Virus record (IMG/VR): IMGVR_UViG_3300042868_002089
Strand: one strand, 5' to 3'
DNA length: 20,000 nucleotides
Origin: an uncultured virus (IMG/VR IMGVR_UViG_3300042868_002089)
Taxonomy: Duplodnaviria > Heunggongvirae > Uroviricota > Caudoviricetes
The number at the start of each line of letters is the position of its first letter. Position 1 is the first letter of the stretch. A model generated the notes under the pieces. It was not told the origin of the DNA, searched no databases, and saw only the letters and a program-made list of their open reading frames with translations. The position numbers and the translations under genes were made by a program. This document shows, piece by piece, positions 2,393 through 20,000 of the stretch.

Positions 2393-2395
2393 GTT

Positions 2396-2863: not shown

Positions 2864-2876
2864 TCAAGACTCCAAT

Positions 2877-3479: not shown

Positions 3480-3488
3480 GATAAGTCC

Positions 3489-3935: not shown

Positions 3936-3936
3936 G

Positions 3937-4629
3937 TCACATTACCTTCTGACGGTATTGGCCAGAGCGGTACGCGTCTTGACGCTCCATACCATCGCCC
4001 AGACGTTTTGCCAACATCAGCGCTTCCTGATACTTGGTGTTGTACATTGTCATCATGTCCGCTTCACCCTTCATGTAGGTGTAGGCTTCCACCAAAGAAC
4101 CGTACAAAAGCACTGAGTCAAAGTTATCACCCAACCATGTCTGGCCGCCTGCCGCAGTCGTAATGGACTCAGGGTAGTAGTAATAGTGCAACTCGACGTT
4201 GTACTCTTGGTTGGGGGTCGGGCCAATGATAAACGTCAGCTCATTAGAAATTGTGGCACCAGTCACAGTGGGACCAAACAACGCGTAATACTTTGGTACG
4301 CCCTTATCATCAGGTACAGGGTACGCTTGACGGATAAAGTTCACGTCCTTGTTCAACAAGTACTCGTACGTGCCGGTGTTCAGGTCATTAGCTGTCACGT
4401 CCGTAATCACCGCCAAGGAATATGTGGCCAAGTAGTCAGTCGGTGCAGACAGGTACTTGTTGTTGGCGGCAATCACGCCCGTCATGTTTTTACGCAATGA
4501 CGGGAACTGGACGGTGTTGTAAATACGCTGCTCAGCTTGCTGAACGAACACGGGTATCTGAGCAATAAAGCTTGCTTCGGTATTTTCCGTGTACGCCTGA
4601 ATAGCGTTGCTGAGTTGCGTATAGTTCAT
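3937..4629 (-). CDS. Putative head-tail adaptor / tail tubular protein
   Basis: 230 aa; AEQRIY, GVPKYYA, GPTP...Y.VELHYYY.P, LLYGSLVEAY motifs; position downstream of capsid genes. Confidence 0.6.
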   Translation of the reverse strand: MNYTQLSNAIQAYTENTEASFIAQIPVFVQQAEQRIYNTVQFPSLRKNMTGVIAANNKYLSAPTDYLATYSLAVITDVTANDLNTGTYEYLLNKDVNFIRQAYPVPDDKGVPKYYALFGPTVTGATISNELTFIIGPTPNQEYNVELHYYYYPESITTAAGGQTWLGDNFDSVLLYGSLVEAYTYMKGEADMMTMYNTKYQEALMLAKRLGDGMERQDAYRSGQYRQKVM

Positions 4630-4823
4630 GCCATCGGACCTCGGGCCATTGTGCCTTTAGTAGCGCATCCAGTACCGCGAATCTTGATGCCAGAAGTCTT
4701 CACGCCGTCGTAGGGGTTGCTACGCTCATTGGCAATAGACATGTTGGCCTTCAAAGCTTCTTTAACAGGCATCTGACCAACAACAACGGTTGGTTCTTTC
4801 TTTGGTTGTCTGTATGTAGCCAT
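4626..4823 (-). CDS. Small basic hypothetical protein
   Basis: ATG 4823 preceded by GGAGG; 65 aa ending IKIRGTGCATKGTMARGPMA; stop overlaps the next start. Confidence 0.7.
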   Translation of the reverse strand: MATYRQPKKEPTVVVGQMPVKEALKANMSIANERSNPYDGVKTSGIKIRGTGCATKGTMARGPMA

Positions 4824-4824
4824 C

Positions 4825-5016
4825 TTAACCTCCACGACCAACAGAGCGCTGGTTCATGACCTTGGCCATGTTGCGGCCATACTTAAGCATGTCGCTGTTA
4901 GTCTTACCACCAGCTTTGAGCTTAGTAGGCTTTTTACCGGGGTGCATGTTTTTCTCATGCTTGCCAACGGCAGACTTAATCATCTTCTTGTCTTGGGCTA
5001 AATCTTTTTTGTCCAT
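4825..5016 (-). CDS. Small Lys-rich hypothetical protein
   Basis: 63 aa, RBS AGGAG, tightly packed in the operon. Confidence 0.7.
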   Translation of the reverse strand: MDKKDLAQDKKMIKSAVGKHEKNMHPGKKPTKLKAGGKTNSDMLKYGRNMAKVMNQRSVGRGG

Positions 5017-5017
5017 G

Positions 5018-5449
5018 TCAGACTCCTATCTGTATCGTTACTGTACCAACTTGTGCTGCCATTGCCAAGTCATTTGGCGTTAAAGCAGTGTCAAAAACTC
5101 TGGCTCCCCCAACAGGATTCCAGCCCCACTGAAAAACCCTGCTACCTTCAGACGGTAGCCCTGCCGCATCTTTGCCTGAACTGTTGGTCAGAACAATCTG
5201 CAAGCCCGTGTTACCAGACTGATAGTAGCTCACGTCAGGACGCGGATCACGCACACCTTGCGGGTCATCCACCGGATACATACCCAACTGCAACTGCGGC
5301 TGGTCAGGGTCCCAACATGTTTTGCAAACCAAGAGATTGTAGTTCTTGGTTTTGATAATTTCTTTACGTAATTCGTGCAGCTTAAAGCGAAACCCACAGC
5401 GGTCACATTCCGCAATGGAGTTCTTGCCGGACGAAAACCGGTTTCCCAT
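5018..5449 (-). CDS. Zinc-ribbon hypothetical protein
   Basis: 143 aa with CDRCG...VCKTCWD Cys pairs. Confidence 0.7.
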   Translation of the reverse strand: MGNRFSSGKNSIAECDRCGFRFKLHELRKEIIKTKNYNLLVCKTCWDPDQPQLQLGMYPVDDPQGVRDPRPDVSYYQSGNTGLQIVLTNSSGKDAAGLPSEGSRVFQWGWNPVGGARVFDTALTPNDLAMAAQVGTVTIQIGV

Positions 5450-6397
5450 TTACGTGCCGCTTCCAATGTACTGTTGACGAGGCACAAAGCGTACTGCCGC
5501 CTTTTCTTGGTCTTCGCCTGCGGCTCTGTCCCAAGCTTCGTCATATTGTTGCTTCAAAACATCAAGGCGCTGTAAACCCTCGGGCACTTTGAGCGCGATG
5601 TAGTAAGCCAGACCTGCGGCCAAGCAGGGCACAAAACGGAAAGGCACATCCATAGTCTTAGTGCCGCCACCAGCGTCTTGAATACGGCGCATGCGCCAGT
5701 AGACGAACTGATACGTTGTGCCGGGGTTAGGGGTTGGCCACACAGTGATACTGTTCTTCTGAACCAAGCTCATGGCCGCGCCAGTTGTGTGGCTAGCCGC
5801 AGTTGTGCCGTCCTGCCCACGCGTGCAGTTGAGCAAGTACGCAGGTGTAGCGCCACTAGCTGGGGTTGTCTCGTTGTATCCAATCAACTCTGCGCCAATC
5901 TGGATGAAACCAGCAGTTGGCACGCCCACCAAAGAGGTGATTGGAATAGTTGTGGCGGTTGCATTGATGGTCGACTGGACTGTGCCAACCAAAACGCTGG
6001 AGTTACCCGTCAAACGCTGTACCCAAACCTGAATAGGACGGCCTTGGATCAATTTATTTGGGATGGTGGCATACGTGGGCATGCTGATCCGCGTAATCGT
6101 CAGGTCGGCCTGATTATTGGCTACGTTGGCGTTTGTTCGGATGACATGGTCAAGCAAGTCAACAGTGTCGTCCGGGATTGCGTACGTTGGCTGGCCAGTC
6201 ACAAGCGTGATGGTGTTTTGCTCAAACGTCCACATGTTCACGCCACGGTTTGCCCAGTCAGCAAACAGTAAGTTAAGCGATCGACGGGCAGTGCGCAAGT
6301 CATAGCCCGTGCGGAGTTCAGAACCCGCCCGTTCAAAAGCCTCCTCAACCATGTCGTTGAGGTCGAGGTTAAACGAGGTGAGTCCTGAAGTAGTCAT
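5450..6397 (-). CDS. Putative head-tail adaptor / tail tubular protein with an inserted domain
   Basis: 315 aa; ARRSLNLLFADWANRG, GRPIQ, VWPTP, PFRFVPCLAAGLAYYIA motifs typical of podovirus adaptor-like proteins. Confidence 0.6.
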   Translation of the reverse strand: MTTSGLTSFNLDLNDMVEEAFERAGSELRTGYDLRTARRSLNLLFADWANRGVNMWTFEQNTITLVTGQPTYAIPDDTVDLLDHVIRTNANVANNQADLTITRISMPTYATIPNKLIQGRPIQVWVQRLTGNSSVLVGTVQSTINATATTIPITSLVGVPTAGFIQIGAELIGYNETTPASGATPAYLLNCTRGQDGTTAASHTTGAAMSLVQKNSITVWPTPNPGTTYQFVYWRMRRIQDAGGGTKTMDVPFRFVPCLAAGLAYYIALKVPEGLQRLDVLKQQYDEAWDRAAGEDQEKAAVRFVPRQQYIGSGT

Positions 6398-6627
6398 CTA
6401 AATCCTGCCGTTTTCTTTGCAATCGTTTTAGGTTGCGCTACGAATTGTTTTCCGGCTTTTTTGCCCGCACGTTTCGCACGCGTTGTCGCAGCGTACTCAG
6501 CAGGACTGAGGCTTTTAATCGCAGCACTAGGAAGGTATCGCTCACCCGTGTCAGAAGATTTCTTACCACTTTTGGTTCTCCATTTCTGGTCGCCCCAGTC
6601 CTTCAATGATTTCTGAGGCGCTTTCAA
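6394..6627 (-). CDS. Small basic hypothetical protein
   Basis: 77 aa, KSLKDWGDQKWRTKSGK...GERYLP; 4-nt overlaps with both neighbours. Confidence 0.75.
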   Translation of the reverse strand: MKAPQKSLKDWGDQKWRTKSGKKSSDTGERYLPSAAIKSLSPAEYAATTRAKRAGKKAGKQFVAQPKTIAKKTAGFR

Positions 6628-6899
6628 TCTCGGTAACCCCCGCCAGCCGCCTTGTACTTCTTGGCAACTAGCTGAGCTTTACGAGCCGACCACTGGCCTG
6701 CGCCAGTGCCGTGGGTGGCCGCGGCTTTTACTTGAGACACAATCTTCTTGCGAAGACCGGGCTTTGTGTAATTGCCTGCGGCGTTAACCTTCCCACCCTC
6801 TTTGTATTGGGTGAAGTCAGTATCGTCCCGTCGGGCTTTCTTAACGCCCTTGGGCATTTTAGAGGGGGCAATATCCCCCATCCCACGGCTGGCCATCAT
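6624..6899 (-). CDS. Small basic protein (C-terminal half resembles DUF5872 from memory)
   Basis: NYTKPGLR...GQWSARKAQLVAKKYKAAGGGYRD motif. Confidence 0.7.
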   Translation of the reverse strand: MMASRGMGDIAPSKMPKGVKKARRDDTDFTQYKEGGKVNAAGNYTKPGLRKKIVSQVKAAATHGTGAGQWSARKAQLVAKKYKAAGGGYRD

Positions 6900-6902
6900 G
6901 AT

Positions 6903-7325
6903 TTAGCAGGCCTTGCCGCCCATGTTCATCTTCTTGGTCATGCCGCCCTTTTTCATACCCAAGGGGGTGCTGCCCTTCATAGAGACCATAGTGCCTTTGG
7001 TCTTGCCTTTAGAAGCAATACCGTCACGGCTAGGAGCCGCTGTACGCACTGAACCCATTTTGGCAGTAGTGATGCCGTTGTTTTTACGTGTAGCCATGAT
7101 AGATCCACCTTCTTTAAAAAGAGCCATTTTCCCGTGATCGGTTTTAGCTCGGTTTGCCTTCTGAATATCTGGACGGGTTCTCCCGCCAGAGCCAAACTTC
7201 TTGCCCTTGTCCGCTTCGTTGAAATCTTTCCCAACGCTTTGCGGAACTCCCACCTTCTTGGCAAACGCAGGACTGTGCGCTATCGCCGCCATGAAGTTGT
7301 GCTGCTTTTTACTCGTCGACGGCAT
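6903..7325 (-). CDS. Lys/Gly-rich hypothetical protein
   Basis: Likely start ATG 7325 (MPSTSKKQHNFMAAIAHSPAFAKKVGVPQSVG); the longer track version overlaps the upstream gene. Confidence 0.7.
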   Translation of the reverse strand: MPSTSKKQHNFMAAIAHSPAFAKKVGVPQSVGKDFNEADKGKKFGSGGRTRPDIQKANRAKTDHGKMALFKEGGSIMATRKNNGITTAKMGSVRTAAPSRDGIASKGKTKGTMVSMKGSTPLGMKKGGMTKKMNMGGKAC

Positions 7326-7503
7326 TTTTAGCCTTAGTACGATTGGTCGCTTCACGAACAGTATCAGACTCCCAGATACGAAGACCAAGGTAGATGATAG
7401 TGAACAGAGAAGCCAAAGGCGGCAACCACGTCGCCATAACGCCAACAGTTGTTAAGACTGCTGCGCCATCTGCAACTGCTTTAGCTGTGTCGTGTTGAGT
7501 CAT
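7309..7503 (-). CDS. Small membrane protein (holin-like)
   Basis: 64 aa with hydrophobic stretch AAVLTTVGVMATWLPPLASLFTIIYLGLRIW and a charged C-terminus. Confidence 0.55.
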   Translation of the reverse strand: MTQHDTAKAVADGAAVLTTVGVMATWLPPLASLFTIIYLGLRIWESDTVREATNRTKAKNAVDE

Positions 7504-7504
7504 A

Positions 7505-7759
7505 TCAGCAATTCCAAGCCCGAAGGCTTTTGTTGATTCTGGAGTTCGGGTCTTTCTTGGCCTTCTCTCCGGTCAGCTTCTTCTTCATGCCTTCCATACG
7601 GGCGCAAAAAGAGTCGCGGCGTTTGCCGCCCTCTGGTTGAGGACGCTTCAAGCCCGGCTTGCCGGGGTTTGCCTTGTTGTACGAGGCCCGTCCCTTGGCG
7701 TTCAAGCCGCCCTTCTCGGACTTCCCCTCTTTGCGTTGCCATGCTGGTGACTTAGCCAT
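7505..7759 (-). CDS. Small basic phage protein (DUF6321-like from memory)
   Basis: MAKSPAWQRKEGK...GGLNAKGRASYN...RRDSFCARM...SRINKSLRAWNC. Confidence 0.7.
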   Translation of the reverse strand: MAKSPAWQRKEGKSEKGGLNAKGRASYNKANPGKPGLKRPQPEGGKRRDSFCARMEGMKKKLTGEKAKKDPNSRINKSLRAWNC

Positions 7760-8036
7760 AAAACACCGTCACTTTAGCGCCGGTCGGCACTGTTACGTGC
7801 ACATCGGTATAAAACAAGATGCCCTCGCCGGGAATCAAGTTCGAAAACGGATTGTTGGTGTTTGCAGGGATATTGAACTGCAAGCGGATAGTGCCAGAAG
7901 CACCGCCGTCACGGAAAATAATATCGCCAGCAGTACCGCCAGACAGGCATTGGTAGCCTTTAACACGTGTGCGTCCAGACTCCATCGTGCCAGTAGCTTC
8001 GATGTGCGAGGACTTTACGTCGGTTTGCATTGTCAT
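7752..8036 (-). CDS. Small beta-rich virion-associated protein
   Basis: ATG 8036 with RBS AAGGAG; ends IPGEGILF...VTVFYG. Confidence 0.65.
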   Translation of the reverse strand: MTMQTDVKSSHIEATGTMESGRTRVKGYQCLSGGTAGDIIFRDGGASGTIRLQFNIPANTNNPFSNLIPGEGILFYTDVHVTVPTGAKVTVFYG

Positions 8037-8050
8037 AATCAAGCTCCTTT

Positions 8051-8070
8051 AAAAACGGGGCCGAAGCCCC
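8051..8070 (-). terminator. Intrinsic terminator after 8080-8388
   Basis: Minus strand GGGGC-UUCG-GCCCC followed by GUUUUU. Confidence 0.75.
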
Positions 8071-8079
8071 ACGGGTTGA

Positions 8080-8388
8080 TTAGCTCAGAGCAGCGCCGAT
8101 AGCGGTAACCCAAGCAGAGCCAGTAGAGATTACAAGGCAGTATTCGTTGTTACCTGCACCATTGTCGCTAATCAAGCGAACTTGGCCAGCATTGCCAGCG
8201 GCAGCGGTAGGCAAAGCGGTTGTCAGAATGGGGGTTAGTTTAGCGAAAGATGCGATTGTTAAGCTGTCAACACTGCTAGCGGCACCAAATGTTGCGTCAA
8301 CAGTAACAGCGCCAGTAGTGCTGTTTGTAGTGATTGATTGAAAGCCGTTCTGCGAGCGAACTGGGCCGTTAAACGTGGTATTTGCCAT
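8080..8388 (-). CDS. Putative capsid-associated fibre/decoration protein
   Basis: 102 aa, MANTTFNGPVRSQNGF...LPTAAAGNAG...STGSAWV; RBS AAGGA; follows the major capsid gene. Confidence 0.65.
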   Translation of the reverse strand: MANTTFNGPVRSQNGFQSITTNSTTGAVTVDATFGAASSVDSLTIASFAKLTPILTTALPTAAAGNAGQVRLISDNGAGNNEYCLVISTGSAWVTAIGAALS

Positions 8389-8399
8389 GATTATTCCTT

Positions 8400-8470
8400 A
8401 CATGCAAGTTGTGGTGTTCTATCTGCATGTCGTCAGCCGGGACTGTAAGAACACCGGGAAAGCCCGGAAT
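8400..8470 (-). ncRNA. Candidate structured cis-regulatory leader RNA (two crossing pseudoknots)
   Basis: Three perfect pairings: 8463-8467/8437-8441 (5 bp), 8448-8455/8413-8420 (8 bp), 8424-8430/8400-8406 (7 bp). The last ends immediately before the SD of 8080-8388. Confidence 0.55.
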
Positions 8471-8476
8471 GAAGTC

Positions 8477-8505
8477 AATATACACGAAAAGAAAAGGGGG
8501 CACAA
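8477..8505 (-). promoter_or_regulatory. Candidate sigma70-type promoter overlapping the capsid terminator
   Basis: Minus strand TTGTGC (8505-8500)-N17-TATATT (8482-8477). Confidence 0.45.
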
Positions 8506-8516
8506 GCCCCCTTTTC
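8487..8516 (-). terminator. Intrinsic terminator after the major capsid gene (possibly bidirectional)
   Basis: 11-bp stem GAAAAGGGGGC/GCCCCCTTTTC with 4-nt loop, followed by a U-tract on the minus strand. Confidence 0.85.
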
Positions 8517-8526
8517 ACAAGTTCAA

Positions 8527-9456
8527 TTAAGAACCTGAAGAACCCCACATACCGAGGGGATCAGACCAGCCGAAGCTATAACGCTCACGGGCTTTGTAAC
8601 GAACGTTACCTGTATCGAAGTCACCGTCCATGCTGTTTTGCAAGGCGATACGCTCGAAATGCTTCATGCCGTTAGGAACGTCGGTCAACAAGTACCAGCC
8701 GTTGCTGTCGGTCAAGAAGTGGTTAACAGTGTAACCTTCAGGGATTGCACCCATCTGCTTCAACGCGTTGATATCGTTGTCAGCAGTAGAAACACGCAGC
8801 TCAGTGTCAAGCAAGCGCTTGGCAACGAACATCAGTGCTGGGGGAACAACCATCTTACGGGGCTTAGCGGCGATCAACAGACCACGCTCGTCCACCCACG
8901 CTGCGATTTGAATCACGGCGTTTTCCAAAGATGTTTCGTTCAAGTCAACGCCAGTTGTTGGGCTGTTGAAGTTCACACCACCGCTAACGAGGGGGTGACC
9001 AACGCGAGTGTTAGAACTGTTGTTGCCGAACAAAGTGACGCCGTCACCGCCCAAGTATGAACCGTTGAAACCGTTGTTGATAACGGAAGCGGCTTTAACT
9101 TGCTTGGTGTAAGACATGGCACGGGCCAAAGCTTTGGTGTAACGTGCAGACAAAGAGTCATACAAGTTATCTTCCACAGCTTCTTCAGTAATACTGAAGC
9201 CCAGAGCGATTGTCTCGTGGTTGTAGCGTGCAGTGAAGGCTTCTTGCGCATTGTCATAGGCAATGGCTTGACCTTCATTCTTGACGGGAGCAGAAGCAAA
9301 GCCAGCAAGCTTTGTCTCTTCTTCGAAGCTACGCTCAGATTTCTCTGTTTCGTAGATTTCTTTGTGCTCTTCGCCGTAGCGAGCGTATTCCATGCCGAAC
9401 AAAGCGTTCAGGCCGGGGAGCAACTCTTTAAGTAGTTGTGCGCGTGAAATAGCCAT
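8527..9456 (-). CDS. Major capsid protein (HK97-fold; Mu gpT-like family)
   Basis: 309 aa, MAISRAQLLKELLPGLNALFG...YKARERYSFGWSDP; strong RBS AAGGAG; follows scaffold and precedes a strong terminator. Confidence 0.88.
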   Translation of the reverse strand: MAISRAQLLKELLPGLNALFGMEYARYGEEHKEIYETEKSERSFEEETKLAGFASAPVKNEGQAIAYDNAQEAFTARYNHETIALGFSITEEAVEDNLYDSLSARYTKALARAMSYTKQVKAASVINNGFNGSYLGGDGVTLFGNNSSNTRVGHPLVSGGVNFNSPTTGVDLNETSLENAVIQIAAWVDERGLLIAAKPRKMVVPPALMFVAKRLLDTELRVSTADNDINALKQMGAIPEGYTVNHFLTDSNGWYLLTDVPNGMKHFERIALQNSMDGDFDTGNVRYKARERYSFGWSDPLGMWGSSGS

Positions 9457-9469
9457 GGTTAGTTACTCC

Positions 9470-10099
9470 TTACAGACCAATTGCAATGGTGTATGAGTGG
9501 TAGCCGGGGTTGAACTTCACCAGCAAATCAGTATAAGCGTCGCCAACTTGGGACTGAGCATTGTTCACGAAACCAACAATGCGGAAAGCAGCGGTCGCGG
9601 CAGTGGCAGAAGCCGACACAGCAACGTTGCTATTTCCTGTGGTTGTAGAACCAGTGCTTGTGCTCTGGATGTTAGCCAAGAACACGTTTTGACCCAAAGC
9701 AGATGCAGCCACAGTGTTGTTAGCTTGCACGGAGAACACAGCGCGGTCGTCATCAATGACAAAAGCAATAGCGTTCACAGCGTTAGCTGGGTAGTACTGT
9801 GAGTAGATCGTTTGACCTTGTGCGTTCACATAGGAGCAACCGACGAAAACGCCGATAGAACCTGTGTTGGTTGCAGAGCCACCGCTTCCTGTGGGGAAGT
9901 AGTTGGTAGTTGCGTCAGCACCAGTCGCAGTCACGAGTTGCAGGTAACCTGACGCAGCCACGTACACCAACGATCCATTAAAGATGTTGACGGCGTAACC
10001 GGCAGGGTCTAGGGGGAACGAGCGAGTGCTACCAGCGTATGGTAGGCCACCCAACTCATTCACGGCTCGGAAGCCGTAAGGGGTTTGTGTAGATGCCAT
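9470..10099 (-). CDS. Putative capsid decoration/cement protein
   Basis: 209 aa, PYGFRAV...IGVFVGCSY...AFVIDD; immediately upstream of the capsid gene; RBS AGGAG. Confidence 0.6.
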   Translation of the reverse strand: MASTQTPYGFRAVNELGGLPYAGSTRSFPLDPAGYAVNIFNGSLVYVAASGYLQLVTATGADATTNYFPTGSGGSATNTGSIGVFVGCSYVNAQGQTIYSQYYPANAVNAIAFVIDDDRAVFSVQANNTVAASALGQNVFLANIQSTSTGSTTTGNSNVAVSASATAATAAFRIVGFVNNAQSQVGDAYTDLLVKFNPGYHSYTIAIGL

Positions 10100-10116
10100 T
10101 TAAGGACTCCTAAAGT

Positions 10117-10572
10117 TTATTTGGAACCAGAACCAAATCCACCACGAGTTGAAGTCGACTTGCGGTCGGCAAACAACGGCATGCGTGGATCATTTTGTCG
10201 CATGAAGCTATTGTCAACTGAGTCCATCTGGTTTTGAGCTTGCTGGTCGTAATAAGCTTTACGGGCTTCGAACTTCTCTTTTGGCATCTTGCAGAGCATG
10301 AGGCCGCCGATTTCGACGTTGCCAGTCTTATCATTTCCAACCATCATCAATTCTGGATGGTCCTCTGCCTTCACCGGCTCCCAACCTTCACGCATTTTGC
10401 GCGATACGTTGGTCACTTCCGACTGTCCCAGAACGTGCGTAGCCACCCAGTGGTACACCCAGCCCGGTTCAGGCGTTGGATCAGGCAAGTTGCTCGGCGG
10501 TACGTATACAGCACGGGCAGATTTTTCGCGTGTCGTCAGATCACGATTTTTGCGGTCGATAGTTTCAGCCAT
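10117..10572 (-). CDS. Conserved head-module hypothetical protein
   Basis: 151 aa, LPDPTPEPGWVYHWV...REGWEPVKAEDHPEL...IGGLMLCKMP; between scaffold and capsid genes. Confidence 0.7.
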   Translation of the reverse strand: MAETIDRKNRDLTTREKSARAVYVPPSNLPDPTPEPGWVYHWVATHVLGQSEVTNVSRKMREGWEPVKAEDHPELMMVGNDKTGNVEIGGLMLCKMPKEKFEARKAYYDQQAQNQMDSVDNSFMRQNDPRMPLFADRKSTSTRGGFGSGSK

Positions 10573-10573
10573 T

Positions 10574-11524
10574 TCAGTTCTCCAGTTTCGCTACTTGTGC
10601 AGCATATTGCTGCGGGGTTAAACCTAATTTCTTCGCCAACGCAACTTGCGTTGTCGTCAGCTTGATTTTTCCTGCGCTCGTAGAACGAGACACAGAGGCC
10701 ACCACTGTTGTAGGTTTCCGTTGAACCTCACCAGACCTTGGCTTGTCTTCGCTTCGACCAAATAGATCAGGAAACGTTGACTTCATGCGAGCATCAATTT
10801 GCTCGAAGTATTCAGCAGAGCGGGGATCCACTCCGTTTGTGACTAGCTTTTGATGCAGCCCTAGTGCGTAGCTGGTGTATTCTTCAAACCCCTGAGCACC
10901 GAACCACTGGTTTTTTGCCTGCCAGCGCAGAGTTTTTTCGTCGGGCTCAACCTTTTCAGATTGGGTTTGTTGCGGTTGTACATCAAATTTTTCTTCCTGT
11001 AAAGGGGTAGGACGATAATTTTTTGTCTGTTCAACTTTAATCTTGGCATCCATCACAGCTTCTTGAGCGGCAATGATGGCATCCGTGTCAAAGGATTCTT
11101 GTGCTTCCTTGAGCTTGCGGCGAGCCATTTCTAGTTCGCTTTCCGCTTTTGACTTGGCGCCAGCAATGATTGCTTCTTGGCCTGTGTAGACGTTTTTCTT
11201 GAGGCGTTTGTTCTCCTCAATCAACTGCTGTGCAAGACGCTCCAGCTCTTGTTTCTCACGCTGTGTCGCTTCTTTGACACGGCGCTCGTCGTGGCGTGCG
11301 TGTGTCAGCTCTTTAATGCGTGATTTAACTTTGTCCGAATAAGACTCAATCTCTTCATCGGTTGGGTCAACAACTTCCTTGTCCAAAGGCTTGCGGCCTC
11401 TGTCTTGGGCAGGCGTGTCGTCTTCAATCTCGATGTCAACATCCCCTTCGCCTTCAATTTCAAACTCGACGTCAGGGGTCTTCTTCGCTTCTACTTCGTC
11501 AGGAAATTTAAATTCGTCTTTCAT
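10574..11524 (-). CDS. Putative capsid scaffolding protein
   Basis: 316 aa, acidic N-terminus, long coiled coil, C-terminal helix QVALAKKLGLTPQQYA; position between portal and capsid genes. Confidence 0.7.
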   Translation of the reverse strand: MKDEFKFPDEVEAKKTPDVEFEIEGEGDVDIEIEDDTPAQDRGRKPLDKEVVDPTDEEIESYSDKVKSRIKELTHARHDERRVKEATQREKQELERLAQQLIEENKRLKKNVYTGQEAIIAGAKSKAESELEMARRKLKEAQESFDTDAIIAAQEAVMDAKIKVEQTKNYRPTPLQEEKFDVQPQQTQSEKVEPDEKTLRWQAKNQWFGAQGFEEYTSYALGLHQKLVTNGVDPRSAEYFEQIDARMKSTFPDLFGRSEDKPRSGEVQRKPTTVVASVSRSTSAGKIKLTTTQVALAKKLGLTPQQYAAQVAKLEN

Positions 11525-11534
11525 AACGTTCCTT

Positions 11535-11984
11535 TTAAGCGCGGGTTAAGCCGCGGGGGTCTTGCACAACAGCATCAACTTGGTCGTCGTTGATGAGACG
11601 GAACTCCTTGCCAAAGATTTTGAATCTTGTGCCGGAGTAAGTACGTACTAACACGAAGTCGCCTTCTTTACACCATGCTCCGTTGGGGAACTTGGAGCTG
11701 TCTTTGTACGCATCGGGGCCTACACGCAATACAAACAACACCGTGGTGGCGTGTTCTTCTTGGCGCATAGTGGCTGTATCTCTCACGAGATCCAGTGACG
11801 TACCAGCAATCTTTTGATCGACTTCAGGCACGATACAGAGCAGCTTCCAACCTGTGGGGGTCGGCAGTGCGCCTGCTTTGTCTTCATTGTCATCATCCTC
11901 GTCTGGGGCGTCCATCGGTTGGATATGTGGCGGCAATGAAATACCGGGGGGCAAAATCAAACCAGATTCAGTGGTTGTCTGCAT
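11535..11984 (-). CDS. groES: GroES/Cpn10-like co-chaperonin
   Basis: PTGWKLL...VLRVGPDAY...CKEGDFVLVRTYSGTRFKIFGKEFRLINDDQVDAVV follows the Cpn10 pattern (V..GD.V....Y.G.....G.E..++.+.DI.A). Start uncertain (11984 or 11990). Confidence 0.8.
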   Translation of the reverse strand: MQTTTESGLILPPGISLPPHIQPMDAPDEDDDNEDKAGALPTPTGWKLLCIVPEVDQKIAGTSLDLVRDTATMRQEEHATTVLFVLRVGPDAYKDSSKFPNGAWCKEGDFVLVRTYSGTRFKIFGKEFRLINDDQVDAVVQDPRGLTRA

Positions 11985-12165
11985 CTTCAACTTTCTTTAG
12001 CAGGTCAAGAACATAACGCTCTGCAAGGGCTAGACCCGAAATAATCCCGCAGAGTTTTTGGTATTCCTCAAATGAGCGACATGCACCGCCAGCCAAGTCA
12101 TCGGCATAGTTGTTCATGTCCCTACGTATTTGGTCGCGCAATACGTGTGCGAAGTCTTGAATCAT
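11968..12165 (-). CDS. Small helical hypothetical protein downstream of portal
   Basis: 65 aa, DDLAGG...FEEYQKLCGIISGL; 4-nt overlap with the portal stop. Confidence 0.7.
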   Translation of the reverse strand: MIQDFAHVLRDQIRRDMNNYADDLAGGACRSFEEYQKLCGIISGLALAERYVLDLLKKVEDADNH

Positions 12166-14660
12166 TTGATTGGTTTAGGTTGGTTTCTGGATGCGTTCTG
12201 CAGTGCTGCAGTCCGCGCTTGCAATTCCGTTTGGGATTTGCTCTTTGCGATGTCGATGCCCATCTGGACACCGGCACGTTCTTGTTCAAACTGGGATTTG
12301 GCTTGGCTCTCTCTGATCTGAGCACCAACGCGCATGGCTTCCAATTCCAGATGACCTTTGACCTTTTGCTCTTCCAGCTCTTGCTTGTCTGCGGCAATTG
12401 CAGCGTCTGCGGCAATCTTCTTCTCTTTGAGTTGAAGCTCTTGCGCCTTGAGCTGAAGCTCTTGCTGTTGCATCTGAACGATGGGGTCCTGCGCCATCTG
12501 CTGAGCCTGCATTTGAGCGGCTTGTGCTTGGCTTTGCTGGAGCACCTGATTGGCCGCCTGAGCCATCATGCCGGACAAGGCAATCTCGATCTCTGGTGGC
12601 AGCTTCTCGTCTTCGGGCGGTAGTGGCATACCGAGTTGTTGCTCGATCTTCTGGCGCATCTGATAGCCAACGTGCTCTGCAATGTGCGCTGACATGCCTC
12701 CCATGATCTTGGCCGCTTGTGGGTTCTGACCAATGAACTGCTGAATCATGGGGTCTTGCATCACAAGCATGTGCACTTGAATGTGGGCTGTGTGATCTTG
12801 ATGCAAGAACGCTTTCATGGGCTTGCCCGTCAGCGCATTCTGGTTCTCCTGCACTGGGTCGGTAGGCTTCATGTCGTCCTCGATCGGCACAAGCTTCTCA
12901 GCATTCTTGATGCCCAAGACGTTGAGCATCCCGCGGTGTAGCTCTGGCAAGTTGTAGATATCAGGAGCCATCTGCGCCATCTGAATCACAGCTTGGTACT
13001 GAACAACGCGCTGAGACATGGTCGCAGCGTTGGGGTCAGACACGGGGATCACGTCAACCAAGTCGTAGTCTGCCTTCTTGGCTTTGCGAGTGCCGTACGC
13101 AGGATCGTACGTGTAGTCTGGGTCTGTGTAGTCGCGGATGATGTTCTTGAGCAGCTTCAACTCTTGCTTCAGAGCAAAGTGCACACGGGCCTGAACAGCC
13201 GTCATGACTTTAAGCTGGCGCTCAAGCAGAGCTAGCGTCGTGCCCACAGGAGCGTTAGCGCTCATGTCGGAGACCTTCATGTCAGCCGTTGCAGCGAAGC
13301 GGCGGCCTTCCTCCACAATGTTCTGCATCAAGTTATACAGAGTAACACTTGGCTCCTTGTACGGCAGAGGCAGGATGCTGTCACGGATGTTGCCAGAGGC
13401 TACGTCGACGTCTCTCCACTCTCCGGGGGCAATCGGTGTGTCATCACCTTTAATGCGAAGTCCGCGCGATTTGAGTCCACCGGGAAGATTAGATAGCGTT
13501 CCTGCGTCAACCAATTGACGCATAAGGCTTGTGGCCGACTTGGCAAAACCACCGATAAGATGGAAGAGTCCAAAACCATAAGCTCCGAATCCGGGGATAT
13601 ATTGGTAGTGTACAAAGTGCTGGCGCTTGAGGCGAAGTTCATCATCTTCATTCCAGTTGCGGCGTATGGACAGAATGTCATTGGTGCCCTTAATGATGGT
13701 TACAACGTACGGCAGCATGATGCCGGTCTCTTCACCATCGTCGTCCACATCTTCGTAGCCGTCAAGGTTCAAGTCAACGTGGCACTCATAGATGGTGTAG
13801 CGGTCGTCGTTCAGGTCGTTAAAGCCTGTCTCTTTATCCTTGGCTTTCTGAATGTCCGTGCGGTCTTTAGGCGCATCAGGCAACTCGATGTCCAAATAAA
13901 ACCCAGCTTGCTGAAGCTTGACGATCTCGTTCTTGGTCTTGCGCATGACGTGCGTGATGCGGTGGCAAGTGTCGAGGTCTGTCGCGCCGTATGGGAGCAA
14001 CATGTCTTCTGCTGGGATGAACATGGAGACTTGACGGCCAAGCGCTGGGTCGAAGTACACCTTCTTAAATGCAGAGCCCGTAGCTGGCAGTGACCACAAC
14101 ATGCGCTCATGCTCAGAGCGATACTCAGTCATGTTCTCAGTCAACTCGAAGTTCATGTCGTCTTCAACGTTGGCCGCTTTCTCTTTGATCTCAGGCGTTT
14201 CTTTACCAATGATCTTGGTACGCACAGGCCCTTGGGCTGGGAACGTCTCTGTGATTGTCTCGGCTTGGAAGCGAACAACAGCTTCTGTAATCATTGGGTG
14301 GAACACACCGCAAGCGCCTTGCCAAGGTTCTGTGCGTTCCTCGATCTGCAGGCCCAAGAGCTTCAGTCCATCAACGTACGTCTTCTCCCACTCTTTGCGT
14401 GAGCCCTTGTCGTTGTCAATATCTGAGACCAAGTCCCCAGCAAGGGACTGCATCGCGCCATCGTCCATGTACTCGGCCAAGTTGTCACTGAAGTCTTCTC
14501 CGTCGTCTTCGTCTGGCTTAATCTTTATCTCCAGCCCGTCCATGCCAATGGTGACTTCTTCGGGATCAACGATCTCGATCTCCAAGGGGGACTCTTGCTG
14601 CGCCAATTCTTCAATGCCAACGGGCTGTTGGAAGAGCGCTTTGTCGATGTTCGTTGCCAT
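12162..14660 (-). CDS. Portal protein (P22-like, long Gln-rich coiled-coil C-terminus)
   Basis: 832 aa directly downstream of terminase; HPMITEAVVRFQAE, GSAFKKVYFD, YGFGLFHLIG, LRQ-like MRQLVDAGTLSNLPGG motifs. Confidence 0.88.
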   Translation of the reverse strand: MATNIDKALFQQPVGIEELAQQESPLEIEIVDPEEVTIGMDGLEIKIKPDEDDGEDFSDNLAEYMDDGAMQSLAGDLVSDIDNDKGSRKEWEKTYVDGLKLLGLQIEERTEPWQGACGVFHPMITEAVVRFQAETITETFPAQGPVRTKIIGKETPEIKEKAANVEDDMNFELTENMTEYRSEHERMLWSLPATGSAFKKVYFDPALGRQVSMFIPAEDMLLPYGATDLDTCHRITHVMRKTKNEIVKLQQAGFYLDIELPDAPKDRTDIQKAKDKETGFNDLNDDRYTIYECHVDLNLDGYEDVDDDGEETGIMLPYVVTIIKGTNDILSIRRNWNEDDELRLKRQHFVHYQYIPGFGAYGFGLFHLIGGFAKSATSLMRQLVDAGTLSNLPGGLKSRGLRIKGDDTPIAPGEWRDVDVASGNIRDSILPLPYKEPSVTLYNLMQNIVEEGRRFAATADMKVSDMSANAPVGTTLALLERQLKVMTAVQARVHFALKQELKLLKNIIRDYTDPDYTYDPAYGTRKAKKADYDLVDVIPVSDPNAATMSQRVVQYQAVIQMAQMAPDIYNLPELHRGMLNVLGIKNAEKLVPIEDDMKPTDPVQENQNALTGKPMKAFLHQDHTAHIQVHMLVMQDPMIQQFIGQNPQAAKIMGGMSAHIAEHVGYQMRQKIEQQLGMPLPPEDEKLPPEIEIALSGMMAQAANQVLQQSQAQAAQMQAQQMAQDPIVQMQQQELQLKAQELQLKEKKIAADAAIAADKQELEEQKVKGHLELEAMRVGAQIRESQAKSQFEQERAGVQMGIDIAKSKSQTELQARTAALQNASRNQPKPIK

Positions 14661-14662
14661 GA

Positions 14663-14833
14663 TTAGTCCTGTACAAATTTGTCTGTATTAAAGCCGTGAT
14701 AGCCGTCAAGCACTTCTGCGCTTACAGAATCAATTAAAATTTTTGTGTGGGGGTTTTTGTTGGCGTTAATCCAAGATATCAACGGCTTTGCCAGCGCCTC
14801 AAACTCTTGCATCTGCTGTTCTTTGTTGTCCAT
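14663..14833 (-). CDS. 56-aa hypothetical phage protein (below the track cutoff)
   Basis: My translation: MDNKEQQMQEFEALAKPLISWINANKNPHTKILIDSVSAEVLDGYHGFNTDKFVQD*; RBS AGGA; fills the terminase-portal gap. Confidence 0.75.
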   Translation of the reverse strand: MDNKEQQMQEFEALAKPLISWINANKNPHTKILIDSVSAEVLDGYHGFNTDKFVQD

Positions 14834-14841
14834 TTGTGTTC

Positions 14842-16383
14842 CTAGTAGTATTCGTACTTCTTACGGCGGAAAAGCTCAATATCTTCTTTCTCGTCCGTGT
14901 CCAGTGTAATAAAGCCGCCTTGCCTAAAGCGTAGCAGCGCCTGTGTTGTGGTGTCCACGTAGTCGTCGTGCTCTCCAACTGGGAAAGCCGCTATCTCTTC
15001 AATCACTTCCCGTGCCCAGCGTGTGTCTGGTGCCCAGACTTTACCACTGCTGAATAAATCCGCAACTGCGTTGACACGCACCATCTTGTCGTTGCCGCGG
15101 CTTGGGCTGAACTCCTGCACCGGTATGCCCAGCGCCCTGAGTTCCTGAATCAGCGGAGCGCCAGCGGCCTTCTTCTCCACGATAAACGCGTCGGGGTCCC
15201 ACTCTTTGTAGTGCTTGAGCGCAATGGTCTTAAGTTCAGGGAACGCCATCCTGTCCTTGAACGCGTCGAGCAATATGAGCTGGGGCGTGTCGTTCTCTTC
15301 CTCGTTGTAGAAGATGCCCCACGTTGTGCATGCCGAATAGTCAGAGTTGTTCTTGGTCTCAAACGCCGTGTCCCACGACTGGATGATGTATTCGCACGTT
15401 GGCGGCTCGTCACTCTCCCAGATTCTCCAGAGCTTGCGGCCAATGATGGCGCTGTTCTCGCTTGTGGGCTGCTGCATGTACTGCGCGTTCCAATACCTCG
15501 GGTCAAGCGACGCCTTGGTGGACTTTAAGGACGCCAGTGGCCACTGCTCTGGCCACAGAGACTTCTCGTTCTCCGTGTCTTCATTCAGAATAGCTGGCAG
15601 CTCCACGATTTCCCATGGCACAGCCTCTGGATTCTTGGCTTGGTAGTCAATCAAGCGCCCAGTCAGGTCAAGCAAGGACCATCTGGTCATAATCACAATG
15701 ATCGCACCACCGGGCATCAGACGTTGCAAGGGGCCAGTCTGGAACCAAGACCAAGCCGTGTCAAAAGCCAGCCGACTGTTGGACTTTACATCTTGTTCTG
15801 AATGAGGGTCATCAATGACGAAAAGATCAGCCCCACGGCCAGCCAGTGCGCCACCAACACCAGCAGCATAATACTGCCCACCAGCAGAAGTCGACCACTT
15901 ACCGGCAGCTTTCTGATCGTCTGCGACCATTGTTTGAGGGAAAACTTCACGATACTCCTCCGAGTCAATCAAGTTACGTACGCGCCGACCGAAATCTTCA
16001 GACAGGCCCGCAGTGTGCGTGCCCATGATGATCTTCTTATTAGGGTATTTACCTAGAAAGTACGCAGGGAACAGGTATGAGCTGAACTCAGACTTACCCA
16101 TACGTGGCGCGATGTTGATAATCACGCGCTTTTTCTTGCCCTCGACCACATCTGTGAAGATTTTGGCCAGCTTCCTGTGGTGCGGCCCGATCTTAAAGCC
16201 CGGATAGACGCTCTGGGCGAACCCTAGCATGTTTGTTTTGGCCGCTTGCAAGCTGGCGCGTTGTTCACGCATCTCCAAATCTTGGAAAAGCTCCATCTTT
16301 TCTGCCAGCGACATGTGCGGCAGTGCCTTGGCCATGGCTTCTAGCTCAAGCTTGCTCAAGGTTGTGAAGTTTTCAGGCTTCAT
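14842..16383 (-). CDS. terL: Terminase large subunit
   Basis: Walker A region APRMGKSE, Walker B LFVIDDPH, coupling motif IMTRW, nuclease acidic residues SWDTAF and HDDYVD. Confidence 0.95.
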   Translation of the reverse strand: MKPENFTTLSKLELEAMAKALPHMSLAEKMELFQDLEMREQRASLQAAKTNMLGFAQSVYPGFKIGPHHRKLAKIFTDVVEGKKKRVIINIAPRMGKSEFSSYLFPAYFLGKYPNKKIIMGTHTAGLSEDFGRRVRNLIDSEEYREVFPQTMVADDQKAAGKWSTSAGGQYYAAGVGGALAGRGADLFVIDDPHSEQDVKSNSRLAFDTAWSWFQTGPLQRLMPGGAIIVIMTRWSLLDLTGRLIDYQAKNPEAVPWEIVELPAILNEDTENEKSLWPEQWPLASLKSTKASLDPRYWNAQYMQQPTSENSAIIGRKLWRIWESDEPPTCEYIIQSWDTAFETKNNSDYSACTTWGIFYNEEENDTPQLILLDAFKDRMAFPELKTIALKHYKEWDPDAFIVEKKAAGAPLIQELRALGIPVQEFSPSRGNDKMVRVNAVADLFSSGKVWAPDTRWAREVIEEIAAFPVGEHDDYVDTTTQALLRFRQGGFITLDTDEKEDIELFRRKKYEYY

Positions 16384-16951
16384 CGGTCTTTTCTTCCGTC
16401 ACATCAACCACGTCGATCACACCCATGAACCTGTTGAGCTTGTCTTTGATCCGAGCTTCAAGCTCTACGTCAGACATCTCGGTCTTCTTGACTTCAACCC
16501 GCTCAGTAAACAGCGCAACTTCCGTCACCTTGCCAAGCATGTCTAGCGCTTTGAGGCGGATGCGTGCGTCTGGGTGTTTTACTTCTTCAAGAATCTTGGC
16601 TACGGCAAAGCCGCGAAGCTCCTTGGCCTGCTCCACAAACGCCCAGTCGTAGGCTGTGAGCATTCCAACCAAATGCTGGACTGCGGCAGGGGTTTTTAAA
16701 TTAGTTAGTGCTTGTTGTGTATTTCCAACAGGCTGGCCTGTGACTAGACTTGCAAAAGATTTACGGGCGGCTTCCTGATCGGCTTTGGTTTCGATCTCTT
16801 CGTCTTCTAGCTCAAGCGCTTTGAGCCAGTCAGAGGTTTTGACTTTGGCGTCAATCGTGGTTGTGGGGTCCGCTTTTTCAAAAGACAGAACCGCCGCCGT
16901 GGCGTCGACCACGTCTGGATGAAACTCGCCGTTAATCAGATGTTCAAGCAT
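16373..16951 (-). CDS. Probable terminase small subunit
   Basis: Directly upstream of and overlapping terL; helical with RLKALDMLGK motif. Likely start ATG 16951 (MLEHLING), since the track's TTG start lies in a promoter-like region. Confidence 0.6.
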   Translation of the reverse strand: MLEHLINGEFHPDVVDATAAVLSFEKADPTTTIDAKVKTSDWLKALELEDEEIETKADQEAARKSFASLVTGQPVGNTQQALTNLKTPAAVQHLVGMLTAYDWAFVEQAKELRGFAVAKILEEVKHPDARIRLKALDMLGKVTEVALFTERVEVKKTEMSDVELEARIKDKLNRFMGVIDVVDVTEEKTDEA

Positions 16952-16977
16952 TGCGTAGGTTGGTGCTGGCGTCGCAC

Positions 16978-17026
16978 TTGTTGCCTCGTTGTCGTTAGTG
17001 TACACTTCTTTTCGGCAGTGGTGCAA
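16978..17026. promoter_or_regulatory. Overlapping divergent sigma70-like promoters sharing a palindromic -10
   Basis: Palindrome AGTGTACACT (16997-17006) supplies TACACT on both strands. Plus: TTGTTG(16978-83)-N17-TACACT. Minus: TTGCAC(17026-21)-N18-TACACT. Confidence 0.5.
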
Positions 17027-17099
17027 GTTTCTTCATCATTGCTTCTCCTTGAGGATTAGTCCTCCTTGAAGCCCCGGCTAACCCCCGGGGCTCTTTTTT
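17013..17099 (+). ncRNA. Candidate small RNA with two anti-Shine-Dalgarno (CUCCUU) motifs
   Basis: Lies between a plus-strand promoter and an intrinsic terminator with no plus-strand gene between them; CTCCTT at 17045-50 and 17062-67. The 5' end is estimated from the -10 position. Confidence 0.5.
17070..17099 (+). terminator. Intrinsic terminator (plus strand)
   Basis: Stem AGCCCCGG/CCGGGGCT, 7-nt loop, then CTTTTTT. Confidence 0.8.
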
Positions 17100-17118
17100 A
17101 TTGTGCCGTGTCCAACGT

Positions 17119-17148
17119 TTGACATGAGTCTTTCAAAATTTTTATAGT
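17119..17148 (+). promoter_or_regulatory. Candidate sigma70 promoter for the plus-strand region
   Basis: TTGACA(17119-24)-N18-TATAGT(17143-48). Confidence 0.5.
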
Positions 17149-17446
17149 GGGGTGGGGGTGTTAAGTATCAGGTCTGGGAATTTAAGTATCTAGTTGAGGG
17201 GGTGGGGGTCAAGAATTTTAAAAATTTGATTTGCGGGTGCGAAACAGTGTTTATACGCAGGATTATCGGCGACCCCAATTAGGGGGGCTGGGGGATGGGT
17301 GGGGTCAACACCACGCCAAAACCGAACCCCCGAAACACCCCCATTTTGCACCCCTTCGTAAACTAGAGGTATCGGTTAGGGAATGGTTCTCTAGCCGATT
17401 GGGGACAAGGTGTCCCCGTTCTTTATCTTTCTCAAGGAGAATCAAA

Positions 17447-17872
17447 ATGGCTTTATCTACTCACATCTCTCTCGCACTCGATCACGCCGCAATGTATGAC
17501 GAGTGCATCATCAAGGCACGCAAGGATGCTAAGGACATGACGCACGAGCAAGTGCGTGTTGTGATCCTGCCCATTGTGGCGAGCAAGCCTAAGTACGCTG
17601 TGCCACTCGTTGACGGCAAGGGCAAGGCAAAGGGTACAAAGGTTATGGACAACACCCATGCAAACTACGAGAACGCCAAGCGTGCTGTGACGAGATTATT
17701 GAGTGACATCAAGGGCAAGCAATTGCCTGCATCATCAGGTGCAAGCGAGCCTGTCGTGTTGCCCCGTGGTTTGGTTAGCGGTACAACCAAGAAGATTATT
17801 GACTCAGGCTTGACTCAGGCTCAGTTCAACGAGTTCATTGCTCAGTTGCGTGCTTCTGTTTCTTTTCAATAA
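17447..17872 (+). CDS. Hypothetical early protein (141 aa)
   Basis: RBS AAGGAG before ATG 17447 (MALSTHISLALDH...); the track's N-terminal extension crosses regulatory DNA. Confidence 0.75.
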   Translation: MALSTHISLALDHAAMYDECIIKARKDAKDMTHEQVRVVILPIVASKPKYAVPLVDGKGKAKGTKVMDNTHANYENAKRAVTRLLSDIKGKQLPASSGASEPVVLPRGLVSGTTKKIIDSGLTQAQFNEFIAQLRASVSFQ

Positions 17873-17966
17873 TCTCAACGGGGACAAGTTGTCCCCATTC
17901 TTTCATGGCGGTGCAAGCGTGAGGCTTGCCCGCTGTTTCATTCTTTGTCCAACCTAGGAGTTAATC

Positions 17967-18161
17967 ATGAACTTACCCTCCCCCACACAATTCACACAAG
18001 ATGCTGACCTGACCATACTCATGGTCTTAAACCTGTGGCTTGCACCCATGGAAATCTACGAAGAAGCCATCGAGTGGCTTCACTCACTCTCACTCACGCT
18101 CAGCGCTGAGGACTACCGCTATGTAGAGCAATGCTTCGCCCAACACATCAACTCAATCTAA
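17967..18161 (+). CDS. Hypothetical early protein (64 aa, acidic)
   Basis: RBS AGGAG; ORF track. Confidence 0.7.
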   Translation: MNLPSPTQFTQDADLTILMVLNLWLAPMEIYEEAIEWLHSLSLTLSAEDYRYVEQCFAQHINSI

Positions 18162-18171
18162 GGAGAACCCC

Positions 18172-18351
18172 ATGAAACCCTTCACAGTAATCTCGCACAT
18201 CGTGTGCGCTATCACCCTTGTCACATCCATCATCGTGGGCTTTTGGGGCATGAACGAGTACGGCGTTGCCCCATTGTGGGCATTGCTCACGCTTTTCGGA
18301 TCGTTCTTGTTCGGCACTCAACTCATGCTCATCATCACAGGAGAACAGTAA
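18172..18351 (+). CDS. 59-aa two-helix membrane protein (not in track)
   Basis: My translation: MKPFTVISHIVCAITLVTSIIVGFWGMNEYGVAPLWALLTLFGSFLFGTQLMLIITGEQ*; RBS AAGGAG; TAATG coupling to the next gene. Confidence 0.75.
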   Translation: MKPFTVISHIVCAITLVTSIIVGFWGMNEYGVAPLWALLTLFGSFLFGTQLMLIITGEQ

Positions 18352-18560: not shown

Positions 18561-18595
18561 TAAACGGGGACAATTTGTCCCCATTCTCTTTAATC

Positions 18596-19667: not shown

Positions 19668-19807
19668 CGACCAGTGTCAGCTTTGTTTCGGGGGAATTCC
19701 CATGGGAATTCCCTGCAACGGGGACAGTTTGTCCCCATTGGTGTCGGCGCTTGGGCAATGCCGCGCACCATCCTCATACTGCCTAGGTAAATTCAAGGAG
19801 AAATCAA

Positions 19808-20000
19808 ATGACCAAAGTCAAACACAAAACAAACGTGCAACTCATCAACGATCTGATGTCGCACTCACAGCAAGGCGCTCTCATGCAGGCGTTCATCATC
19901 GAGGCGATATCCAAGTACTCAGAACAAACCAAAGTCTCACCGCCTTGGTCTAACCAAAGCTTCATCAGCGAGGCCGCATGGCGTGCGTGTGCTGACGAGG
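19808..20000 (+). CDS. Hypothetical early protein, partial
   Basis: RBS AAGGAG, ATG 19808: MTKVKHKTNVQLINDLMSHSQQGALMQAFIIEAISKYSEQ...; runs off the window. Confidence 0.75.
   Translation, partial: MTKVKHKTNVQLINDLMSHSQQGALMQAFIIEAISKYSEQTKVSPPWSNQSFISEAAWRACADE

Follow-up and report, generated by a model that had tools for sequence, protein, structure and literature searches.

What does the gene-free ground between the early and late genes of a tailed phage encode, and does it take part in their control? The question is raised by a 20,000-nucleotide (nt) stretch of DNA, hereafter the window, from the IMG/VR record IMGVR_UViG_3300042868_002089. The window derives from an uncultured tailed freshwater phage whose minus strand (2-16951) carries structural and packaging genes and whose plus strand carries, from position 17447, small genes of mostly unknown function. 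An initial annotation had placed between the two a gene-free plus-strand unit with its own promoter and terminator, and had read it as a small RNA (sRNA) directed against the ribosome-binding sites (RBSs) of early genes. Such a unit is indeed present in the sequence, and all coordinates assigned to it hold, namely those of the palindrome, of both -35/-10 pairs, of the terminator, of the segment TTCTCCTTGAG (17043-17053) and of a CAT (17037-17039). We computed its promoter elements, fold, strand and class-specific complementarity. On this basis it is very probable that a conserved and structured sRNA gene of a large lineage of freshwater phages lies at this position.

The predicted sRNA is 86 nt long (17014-17099, plus strand) and runs from 7 nt after the -10 hexamer to the end of the U-tract, both ends being predictions. 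Its 5' end pairs with CAUUGCU to form helix P1 (17014-17043), which closes just upstream of the heptamer UCUCCUU (17044-17050). This heptamer is an anti-Shine-Dalgarno motif and is left unpaired in the centroid fold, between P1 and the second helix, P2 (GAGGA-UUAG-UCCUC, 17051-17064). Helix P3 and the U-tract (17070-17099) form an intrinsic terminator for plus-strand transcripts, with a stem at 17070-17092 followed by a T-run. This is the top terminator-like site between positions 16000 and 20000, and it ends about 20 nt before the -35 hexamer of the early promoter. The minimum free energy of the 86-nt plus-strand RNA is -34.1 kcal/mol (z -4.05), a value that none of 200 shuffles reached, compared with -28.7 kcal/mol (z -2.25) for the opposite strand of the same unit. 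One detail of the initial annotation is not borne out by the fold: the CAU thought to be positioned to reach the AUG of a target is part of helix P1, and it reads CUG in other clades.

To place the unit in its lineage we relied on terS, the small terminase subunit gene and the first gene of the late operon (16373-16951, minus strand; phrog_51, E 6.8e-4). The conservation of terS starts at the ATG at 16951 (MLEHLI...), and most tblastn matches start at residue 17-19 of a longer open reading frame (ORF). Relatives are abundant in IMG/VR, with 360, 251 and 146 terS relatives in three sequence searches; the INPHARED collection of cultured phages holds no match to the window DNA or to the terS protein. 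The comparative set comprises 241 loci, window included, which were gathered by terS similarity alone and blind to the RNA. It falls into three clades with identity down to about 53%, and the 209 loci with at least 260 nt upstream of terS yield 164 unique upstream sequences.

Aligning these upstream regions, as the initial annotation had proposed, showed that promoter (163/164), CUCC core (158/160) and terminator (160/160) are all conserved. The terminator count refers to a hairpin abutting a run of at least six T in the parsed relatives, and it covers 82 distinct hairpin sequences. A second hairpin precedes the terminator in every one of the 160, and the CUCC lies at most 12 nt 5' of this second hairpin (three terS sets taken together). 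The predicted transcripts of the relatives measure 71-129 nt, with a median of 84.

RNAalifold on a plain MAFFT alignment recovered P1 only in part, with hairpins misaligned through insertions and deletions. Since the plain alignment misplaced the hairpins, we used a covariance model (R1), built from four sequences. The model finds one match each in 94 of 100 representative sources, always on the sRNA strand, and in the window it returns exactly 17014-17099 on the plus strand (42.4 bits, E 6.7e-07). In the alignment fitted to this model, 94.8% of 2221 cells pair, compared with 72.6% after shuffling (0/500 shuffles as high), and the covariation score is 0.529, whereas sliding the partners by 1-3 columns gives no more than 0.088; it weighs against our interpretation that such an alignment favours the structure to which it was fitted, a bias that the slid controls carry as well. 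Changes on both sides occur in 24 of the 26 modelled pairs. All 11 pairs of P3 and all 6 of P2 change in this way, the latter with 96.6% of cells paired and 66 distinct sequences (for example GAUGG..CCAUC and GAGG..CCUC). P1 contributes 7 of its 9 modelled pairs, and many of its cells are G.U, with 72 of them at pair 1-66 alone. These wobble pairs settle the strand of the RNA as plus: the alignment contains 409 G.U cells as against 22 A.C cells, and pairing falls to 77.4% when the opposite strand is read.

The unpaired heptamer stands out within this changing structure. Among 93 distinct sequences, none of its seven columns is conserved in fewer than 77, and six reach 88 or more. A conserved 14-mer, TTGCTTCTCCTTGA, begins with the 3' strand of P1 (bases 1-5), continues with the seven exposed bases and ends with the two that open P2, and these three parts together explain its conservation. 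The exact 14-mer is kept in 47 of 144 loci of the two distant sets; in distant clades the flanks change and the core stays (TTGCTTCTCCTCGA, ..CTGAT and others). Some relatives (L012, L068, L313, L346 and others) have an additional hairpin within the P1 loop, and the outer stems differ between clades (GTGG..CCAC, GTTCGG..CCGAAC), so that modular insertions in the P1 linker are tolerated.

A homologous module is also found outside the terS-upstream position. On the minus strand of L091 (600-720), a locus in a different phage contig, the 14-mer, the second hairpin, the terminator and the T-run recur at the 3' end of a same-sense ORF of 64 amino acids (aa). The module sits between convergent genes, opposite the C-terminal end of a DarB-like protein of very large size (phrog_10089, E 1.4e-16), and has its own TTGCGA-17-TACACT upstream. 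Its 33.7-kb record holds no terS match.

The sRNA promoter and the terS promoter lie back to back. On the plus strand, the -35 hexamer TTGTTG (16978-16983) is separated by a 17-nt spacer from the -10 hexamer TACACT (17001-17006). On the minus strand, the -35 hexamer TTGCAC (17026-17021) of the terS/late-operon promoter lies 18 nt from its own -10 hexamer, also TACACT (17002-16997). Both -10 hexamers are held in a 10-nt palindromic block, AGTGTACACT (16997-17006, both strands), where they overlap at the central TA. The DNA of the minus-strand -35 (17021-17026) serves twice, as it also encodes the apical part of P1 (GCAA). The block, defined by TAnnnT on both strands, is present in 163 of the 164 unique upstream sequences and occurs only once in the 47-kb record. 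Its variants (AATGTACACT, AGTGTATACT, AGTGTATAGT, AGTATACAAT) always keep both hexamers, though not always the palindrome. A TTG lies 16-18 nt upstream of the plus-strand -10 in 157/163 unique relatives and at 16-18 nt, mostly 18, from the minus-strand -10 in 147/163; the last three bases of the plus-strand -35 vary (TTGTTG, TTGCTT, TTGCGG, TTGAAC and others). A conserved block with fixed TTG spacing is the pattern that two real, back-to-back promoters of the sigma-70 type would be expected to leave.

The initial annotation had described the sRNA as co-promoted with the late operon. The arrangement suggests otherwise: as the -10 hexamers share the TA, two polymerases cannot occupy both promoters and one should exclude the other, so that mutual exclusion is expected rather than joint firing. 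The locus presents three features of an independent sRNA gene: promoter elements of its own at fixed spacing (though weak by consensus), compensatory structure on the predicted transcribed strand and a correctly oriented terminator. The predicted plus and minus transcripts diverge back to back and do not overlap, which is not the arrangement of cis-antisense RNAs of the sar or OOP type.

The heptamer UCUCCUU is the exact complement of AAGGAGA and shares the letters CUCCUU with the 16S rRNA tail. It thus provides the unpaired C/U-rich seed, complementary to RBSs, that characterizes an anti-Shine-Dalgarno sRNA. The complementarity of the C/U-rich segment to early-gene RBSs that the initial annotation had described was confirmed at every site: TTCTCCTTGAG is complementary to CTCAAGGAGAA (17431-17441), TCAAGGAGAA (19793-19802), AAGGAGAA (18160-18167) and AGGAGAA (18339-18345). 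The sequence TCAAGGAGAA occurs three times in the window, compared with 0.04 expected, and none of 200 shuffles reached three. Duplex energies and contiguous matches were computed with a 20-nt seed region. Within the window, the candidate targets on the plus strand are the start regions of the first early gene, 17447 (TCAAGGAGAAtCAAAATG, 17432-17449; 11 contiguous complementary bases, -19.3 kcal/mol), of gene 19808 (TCAAGGAGAA, 19793-19810; 10 bases, -18.0 kcal/mol) and of gene 18172 (AAGGAGAA, 18160-18174; 8 bases, -13.3 kcal/mol).

We extended this comparison to genome scale by using as a stand-in the nearest record, G001 (46,965 nt, 60% complete), in which about 35 kb of minus-strand late genes and about 11 kb of plus-strand early genes meet at the sRNA intergenic region. 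The best site precedes the record start at 28173 (window numbering, outside the window), with 15 base pairs including one G.U and -27.2 kcal/mol; another candidate, the record start at 20362, has 12 complementary nt. Candidate targets lie 0.4-11 kb from the sRNA gene. At least eight contiguous complementary bases are found in 9 of 19 early start regions and in none of 43 late ones (P-value 4e-5, Mann-Whitney test). The initial annotation had noticed that late RBSs lack the full AAGGAGAA, and the counts bear this out: in messenger sense, the 11-kb early region has 11 copies of AAGGAGA and the 35 kb of late genes none. Each of the 11 early copies has an ATG or GTG 3-13 nt downstream, and in the four cases where a late gene has AAGGAG the next base is T. 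Four further records (G003-G006) show the same early-biased pattern; genes were not called in them, and the early side was taken as the sRNA strand past the sRNA gene. AAGGAGA occurs there 16 times on the early side and twice on the opposite strand, on either side, in G003, 15 and 5 times in G004, 15 and 0 times in G005, and 18 and once in G006. A class-specific form of RBS, AAGGAGA before early genes and never before late ones, is a finding in its own right.

A second pairing segment proposed in the initial annotation did not withstand comparison. This segment, GAUUAGUCCU, consists of the loop and the 3' arm of P2 and varies freely among relatives. The sequence GATTAGTCCT is found both there (17054-17063) and at the start of the portal gene (14661-14670; gene at 12162-14660, minus strand). 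We rejected pairing of GAUUAGUCCU with the portal start AGGACUAAUC: nine loci share this P2 and have a portal start that can be read, and the 10/10 match is present in the window and absent in the eight relatives.

These features suggest how the sRNA might work. A host-type RNA polymerase would transcribe the RNA of about 86 nt from the weak promoter back to back with that of terS, and would stop at the intrinsic terminator, some 20 nt short of the early promoter. The transcript would fold into P1, P2 and the terminator helix P3, leaving UCUCCUU single-stranded between P1 and P2 and free to base-pair with the AAGGAGA start regions of early genes. Pairing would block binding of the 30S subunit and might also invite cleavage by RNases. 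As a result, the synthesis of early proteins would be turned down and late messages would be spared. The synthesis of the RNA, its timing and its repression of translation are inferred from the sequence. We give even chances to an action of the sRNA, through its exposed heptamer, on the AAGGAGA-type RBSs of the phage's own early genes; that it would constitute a timed early-to-late switch is a more tentative proposal, which we consider somewhat improbable as it stands.

Several observations weigh against an action on early genes, or against the RNA itself. Both promoters are weak by consensus (each matches 3/6 in the -35 and 4/6 in the -10) and a consensus scan called neither, so that the support for them comes from conservation and not from match quality. 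The sRNA is a prediction from sequence: a search of public RNA data returned six runs with small shares of the region's words, five of the six on record as RNA. Four of the runs, all available as contigs, were compared with the window, and in one of them contigs of relatives span 17004-17170, such contigs carrying no strand, ends or level. The heptamer would complement any strong Shine-Dalgarno site, and early genes also pair better than late ones with the 16S tail (P-value 3e-5). The contrast between early and late genes may therefore partly reflect the strength of the ribosome site rather than targeting. In addition, the longer target matches extend into bases engaged in P1 and P2. In the clade L281-L338 the first early gene has only TTGGAGA, with 5-6 nt of complementarity. 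The heptamer is invariant while the first early start regions differ among clades, and as it does not vary, co-variation of seed and target gives no information. The same invariance would suit a fixed target in the host, and the sRNA could be real with host messages or factors as its main targets. It could mask strong host RBSs as a look-alike of the 16S tail, in the manner of a shut-off, or act as a sponge for an RNA-binding protein (Hfq or S1), with early-gene pairing as a side effect or a cost. Small RNAs bound by Hfq usually end in a hairpin with a long U-tail, and by analogy the phage sRNA, which ends in this way, may be a ligand of the same type. Its weak Rfam matches are to bacterial sRNAs with C/U-rich motifs, one family of which is reported to be toxic in Escherichia coli when cloned (PMC4603805). 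What speaks for the phage's own genes is that each genome has 11-18 perfect complements among its early genes and almost none among its late genes, which looks like a matched pair within the phage. Bacterial and archaeal sequences give no clue to a host: the exact 14-mer with a T-run is found in at least 120 contigs, and among the 80 compared with the RNA model only two match it, both short binned contigs. A primarily host-directed function is on balance unlikely, although it retains appreciable weight.

Two other explanations dispense with a trans-acting RNA. In one, the function would be the act of transcription: the plus-strand promoter would compete with the overlapping late promoter and keep the late operon down, and the terminator would shield the early promoter. 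The central TA shared by the -10 hexamers, conserved in 163/164 sequences and closed to two polymerases at once, and the end of the terminator about 20 nt before the early -35 both fit this idea. It leaves unexplained why three helices are kept by compensatory change (24/26 pairs on both sides), why an unpaired heptamer is invariant and why the L091 module exists without a late promoter. We regard it as quite improbable as the whole function, and interference between the promoters may instead act in addition to the RNA. The other explanation reads CTCCTT on the minus strand, as the RBS of a small ORF (MMKKLAPLPKRSVH) or of an upstream terS start. An ATG does follow AAGGAGAAGCA in 56 of 77 close relatives, it is in frame with terS and open in 10 of the 77, and terS has no RBS at its conserved ATG. 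All 77 close relatives, window included, keep AAGGAGAAGCAA, yet 21 of them have ACA or ACT and no ATG, so that the antisense ORF, whose conservation the initial annotation had named as the finding that would undo its proposal, is not conserved. The minus-strand ORFs differ in frame and length and their peptides, of 2-32 residues, are unrelated across the three terS sets (these class counts are approximate, as the first GGAG met was taken). The 409 G.U helix cells would be A.C mismatches on the minus strand, where the conserved A run before the hairpin has no role either. Moreover, the minus-strand promoter begins transcription downstream of the CTCCTT site, and the L091 module has no antisense start codon at all. 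Such a reading is thus very unlikely as the explanation of the motif. An opposite-strand ATG at start distance in about 70% of relatives (56/77; roughly 111/161) nonetheless counts against assigning the site to the sRNA alone, and a second use of the minus strand at this site is possible. We also considered a programmed +1 frameshift at CCG-AAA-AGA joining the small ORF to terS, and rejected it as the frame relations differ among close relatives.

Does an sRNA acting on early-gene RBSs resemble anything already described? The initial annotation had suggested a search for known families, and none reaches its threshold: Rfam 15 gives no match in the whole window at gathering thresholds. Below them, on the plus strand, the best match is PsrR1 (RF02701, 26.4 bits against a gathering threshold of 42), followed by Betaproteobacteria toxic small RNA (RF02278, 19.7 against 50), anti-hemB (RF02837, 19.6 against 49.5) and ar15 (RF02345, 19.2 against 40). 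These matches cover the CU-rich stretch and the terminator, features that all four families have themselves, and indicate a likeness of general design rather than membership. Closest in logic are the cuckoo sRNAs of Alphaproteobacteria, which have 2-4 adjacent hairpins with CCUCCUCCC in each loop (PMC4615179). As with the phage sRNA, a short invariant motif resembling an anti-Shine-Dalgarno is their only conserved sequence and the stems covary (PMC4615179). Both types of RNA end in a terminator hairpin with a U-tail. The phage sRNA differs in having a single UCUCCUU, placed in the linker between helices, with hairpin loops that vary and carry no such motif. It is also phage-encoded, with a fixed place in a control region, and the Rfam comparison gave no sequence or model match between the two.

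Phages themselves offer two kinds of precedent. The small RNAs c4 of P1/P7 and sar of P22 pair with a phage message at its RBS region and so prevent its translation. Each controls one immunity gene (ant) and is cut from, or antisense to, the operon that it controls. The sRNA described here has a promoter to itself, lies apart from all of its candidate targets and is complementary to a whole class of start regions, 11-18 in number. The Rfam family C4 is mentioned in PMC4603805. Closest in proposed role is RegB of T4, with which that phage inactivates early messages by way of their RBSs. The early sites of this phage likewise have GGAG followed by A (AAGGAGA) and the late sites do not. RegB is a protein nuclease, whereas here the discriminator would be a base-pairing RNA; PHROGs scans of 16 plus-strand genes of the record gave no RegB-like gene, and no wider search was made. 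It is conceivable, if doubtful, that translation in this lineage passes from early to late under an RNA counterpart of RegB, which would display the letters of the sequence by which ribosomes dock and would tell AAGGAGA of early genes from AAGGAGU of late ones by one base, at a hub of three promoters where the polymerase chooses between the RNA and the late operon. In the literature, at the level of abstracts, we found no phage sRNA that mimics the 16S tail or targets early RBSs as a class, which does not prove its absence in print.

Temporal control in phages is usually ascribed to transcription factors, polymerases and nucleases, and to our knowledge a role has been established for only a handful of small RNAs from lytic phages. 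Throughout an abundant lineage of uncultured freshwater phages, represented by hundreds of contigs, a folded sRNA is kept at the early/late junction, and its sole stretch of unpaired, invariant bases matches the RBSs of one temporal gene class. If the sRNA represses early genes, it would amount to a simple, portable and sequence-programmable translation switch. If the prediction is true, the annotation of phage metagenomes would also gain a new RNA family. That AAGGAGA marks RBSs of early genes and never those of late ones is directly testable.

The surroundings of the sRNA gene hold further signals. Just past the terminator, and pointing into the early genes, lies the early promoter TTGACA-18-TATAGT (17119-17148, plus strand; 11/12 consensus matches). 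It is the sole near-consensus promoter returned by the consensus scan, and it is a neighbour of the sRNA gene rather than part of it. A 16-nt palindrome, TGTCCAACGTTTGACA (17109-17124), covers its -35 hexamer, and relatives keep palindromes of the TGTCTAACGTTAGACA type. It is likely an operator for a repressor of early transcription. In the leader before the first early gene there are G-rich repeats (GGGGTGGGGGT and similar) at about 17150-17162, 17198-17210 and 17283-17307 on the plus strand. Many IMG/VR contigs of the lineage break within this early leader stretch, 74-524 nt upstream of terS. Three near-identical hairpins with T-rich tails (GGGGACAnnnTGTCCCC) lie each just upstream of an early gene (17400-17418, 17880-17896 and 18566-18582, plus strand), and could be attenuators, processing sites or promoters of the hairpin type.

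On the late side, the conserved start codon of terS lacks a Shine-Dalgarno site. A hairpin in the short terS leader (16951-16996, minus strand) shows compensatory changes between relatives (AGTGC..GCACT and AGTAC..GTACT). In the clade with L101, only about 14 nt separate the -10 hexamer from the start codon, which leaves the message nearly leaderless. Downstream, terL (14842-16383, minus strand; phrog_38, E 4e-102) is separated from the portal gene by an ORF of 56 aa (14663-14833, minus strand; phrog_16206). The sequence ACTACTAGGAACACA-ATG is found before the portal start in most relatives examined, but before the 56-aa ORF in the window, where the portal start is preceded by AGGACTAATC-ATG instead. 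The 56-aa ORF looks like a small inserted gene.

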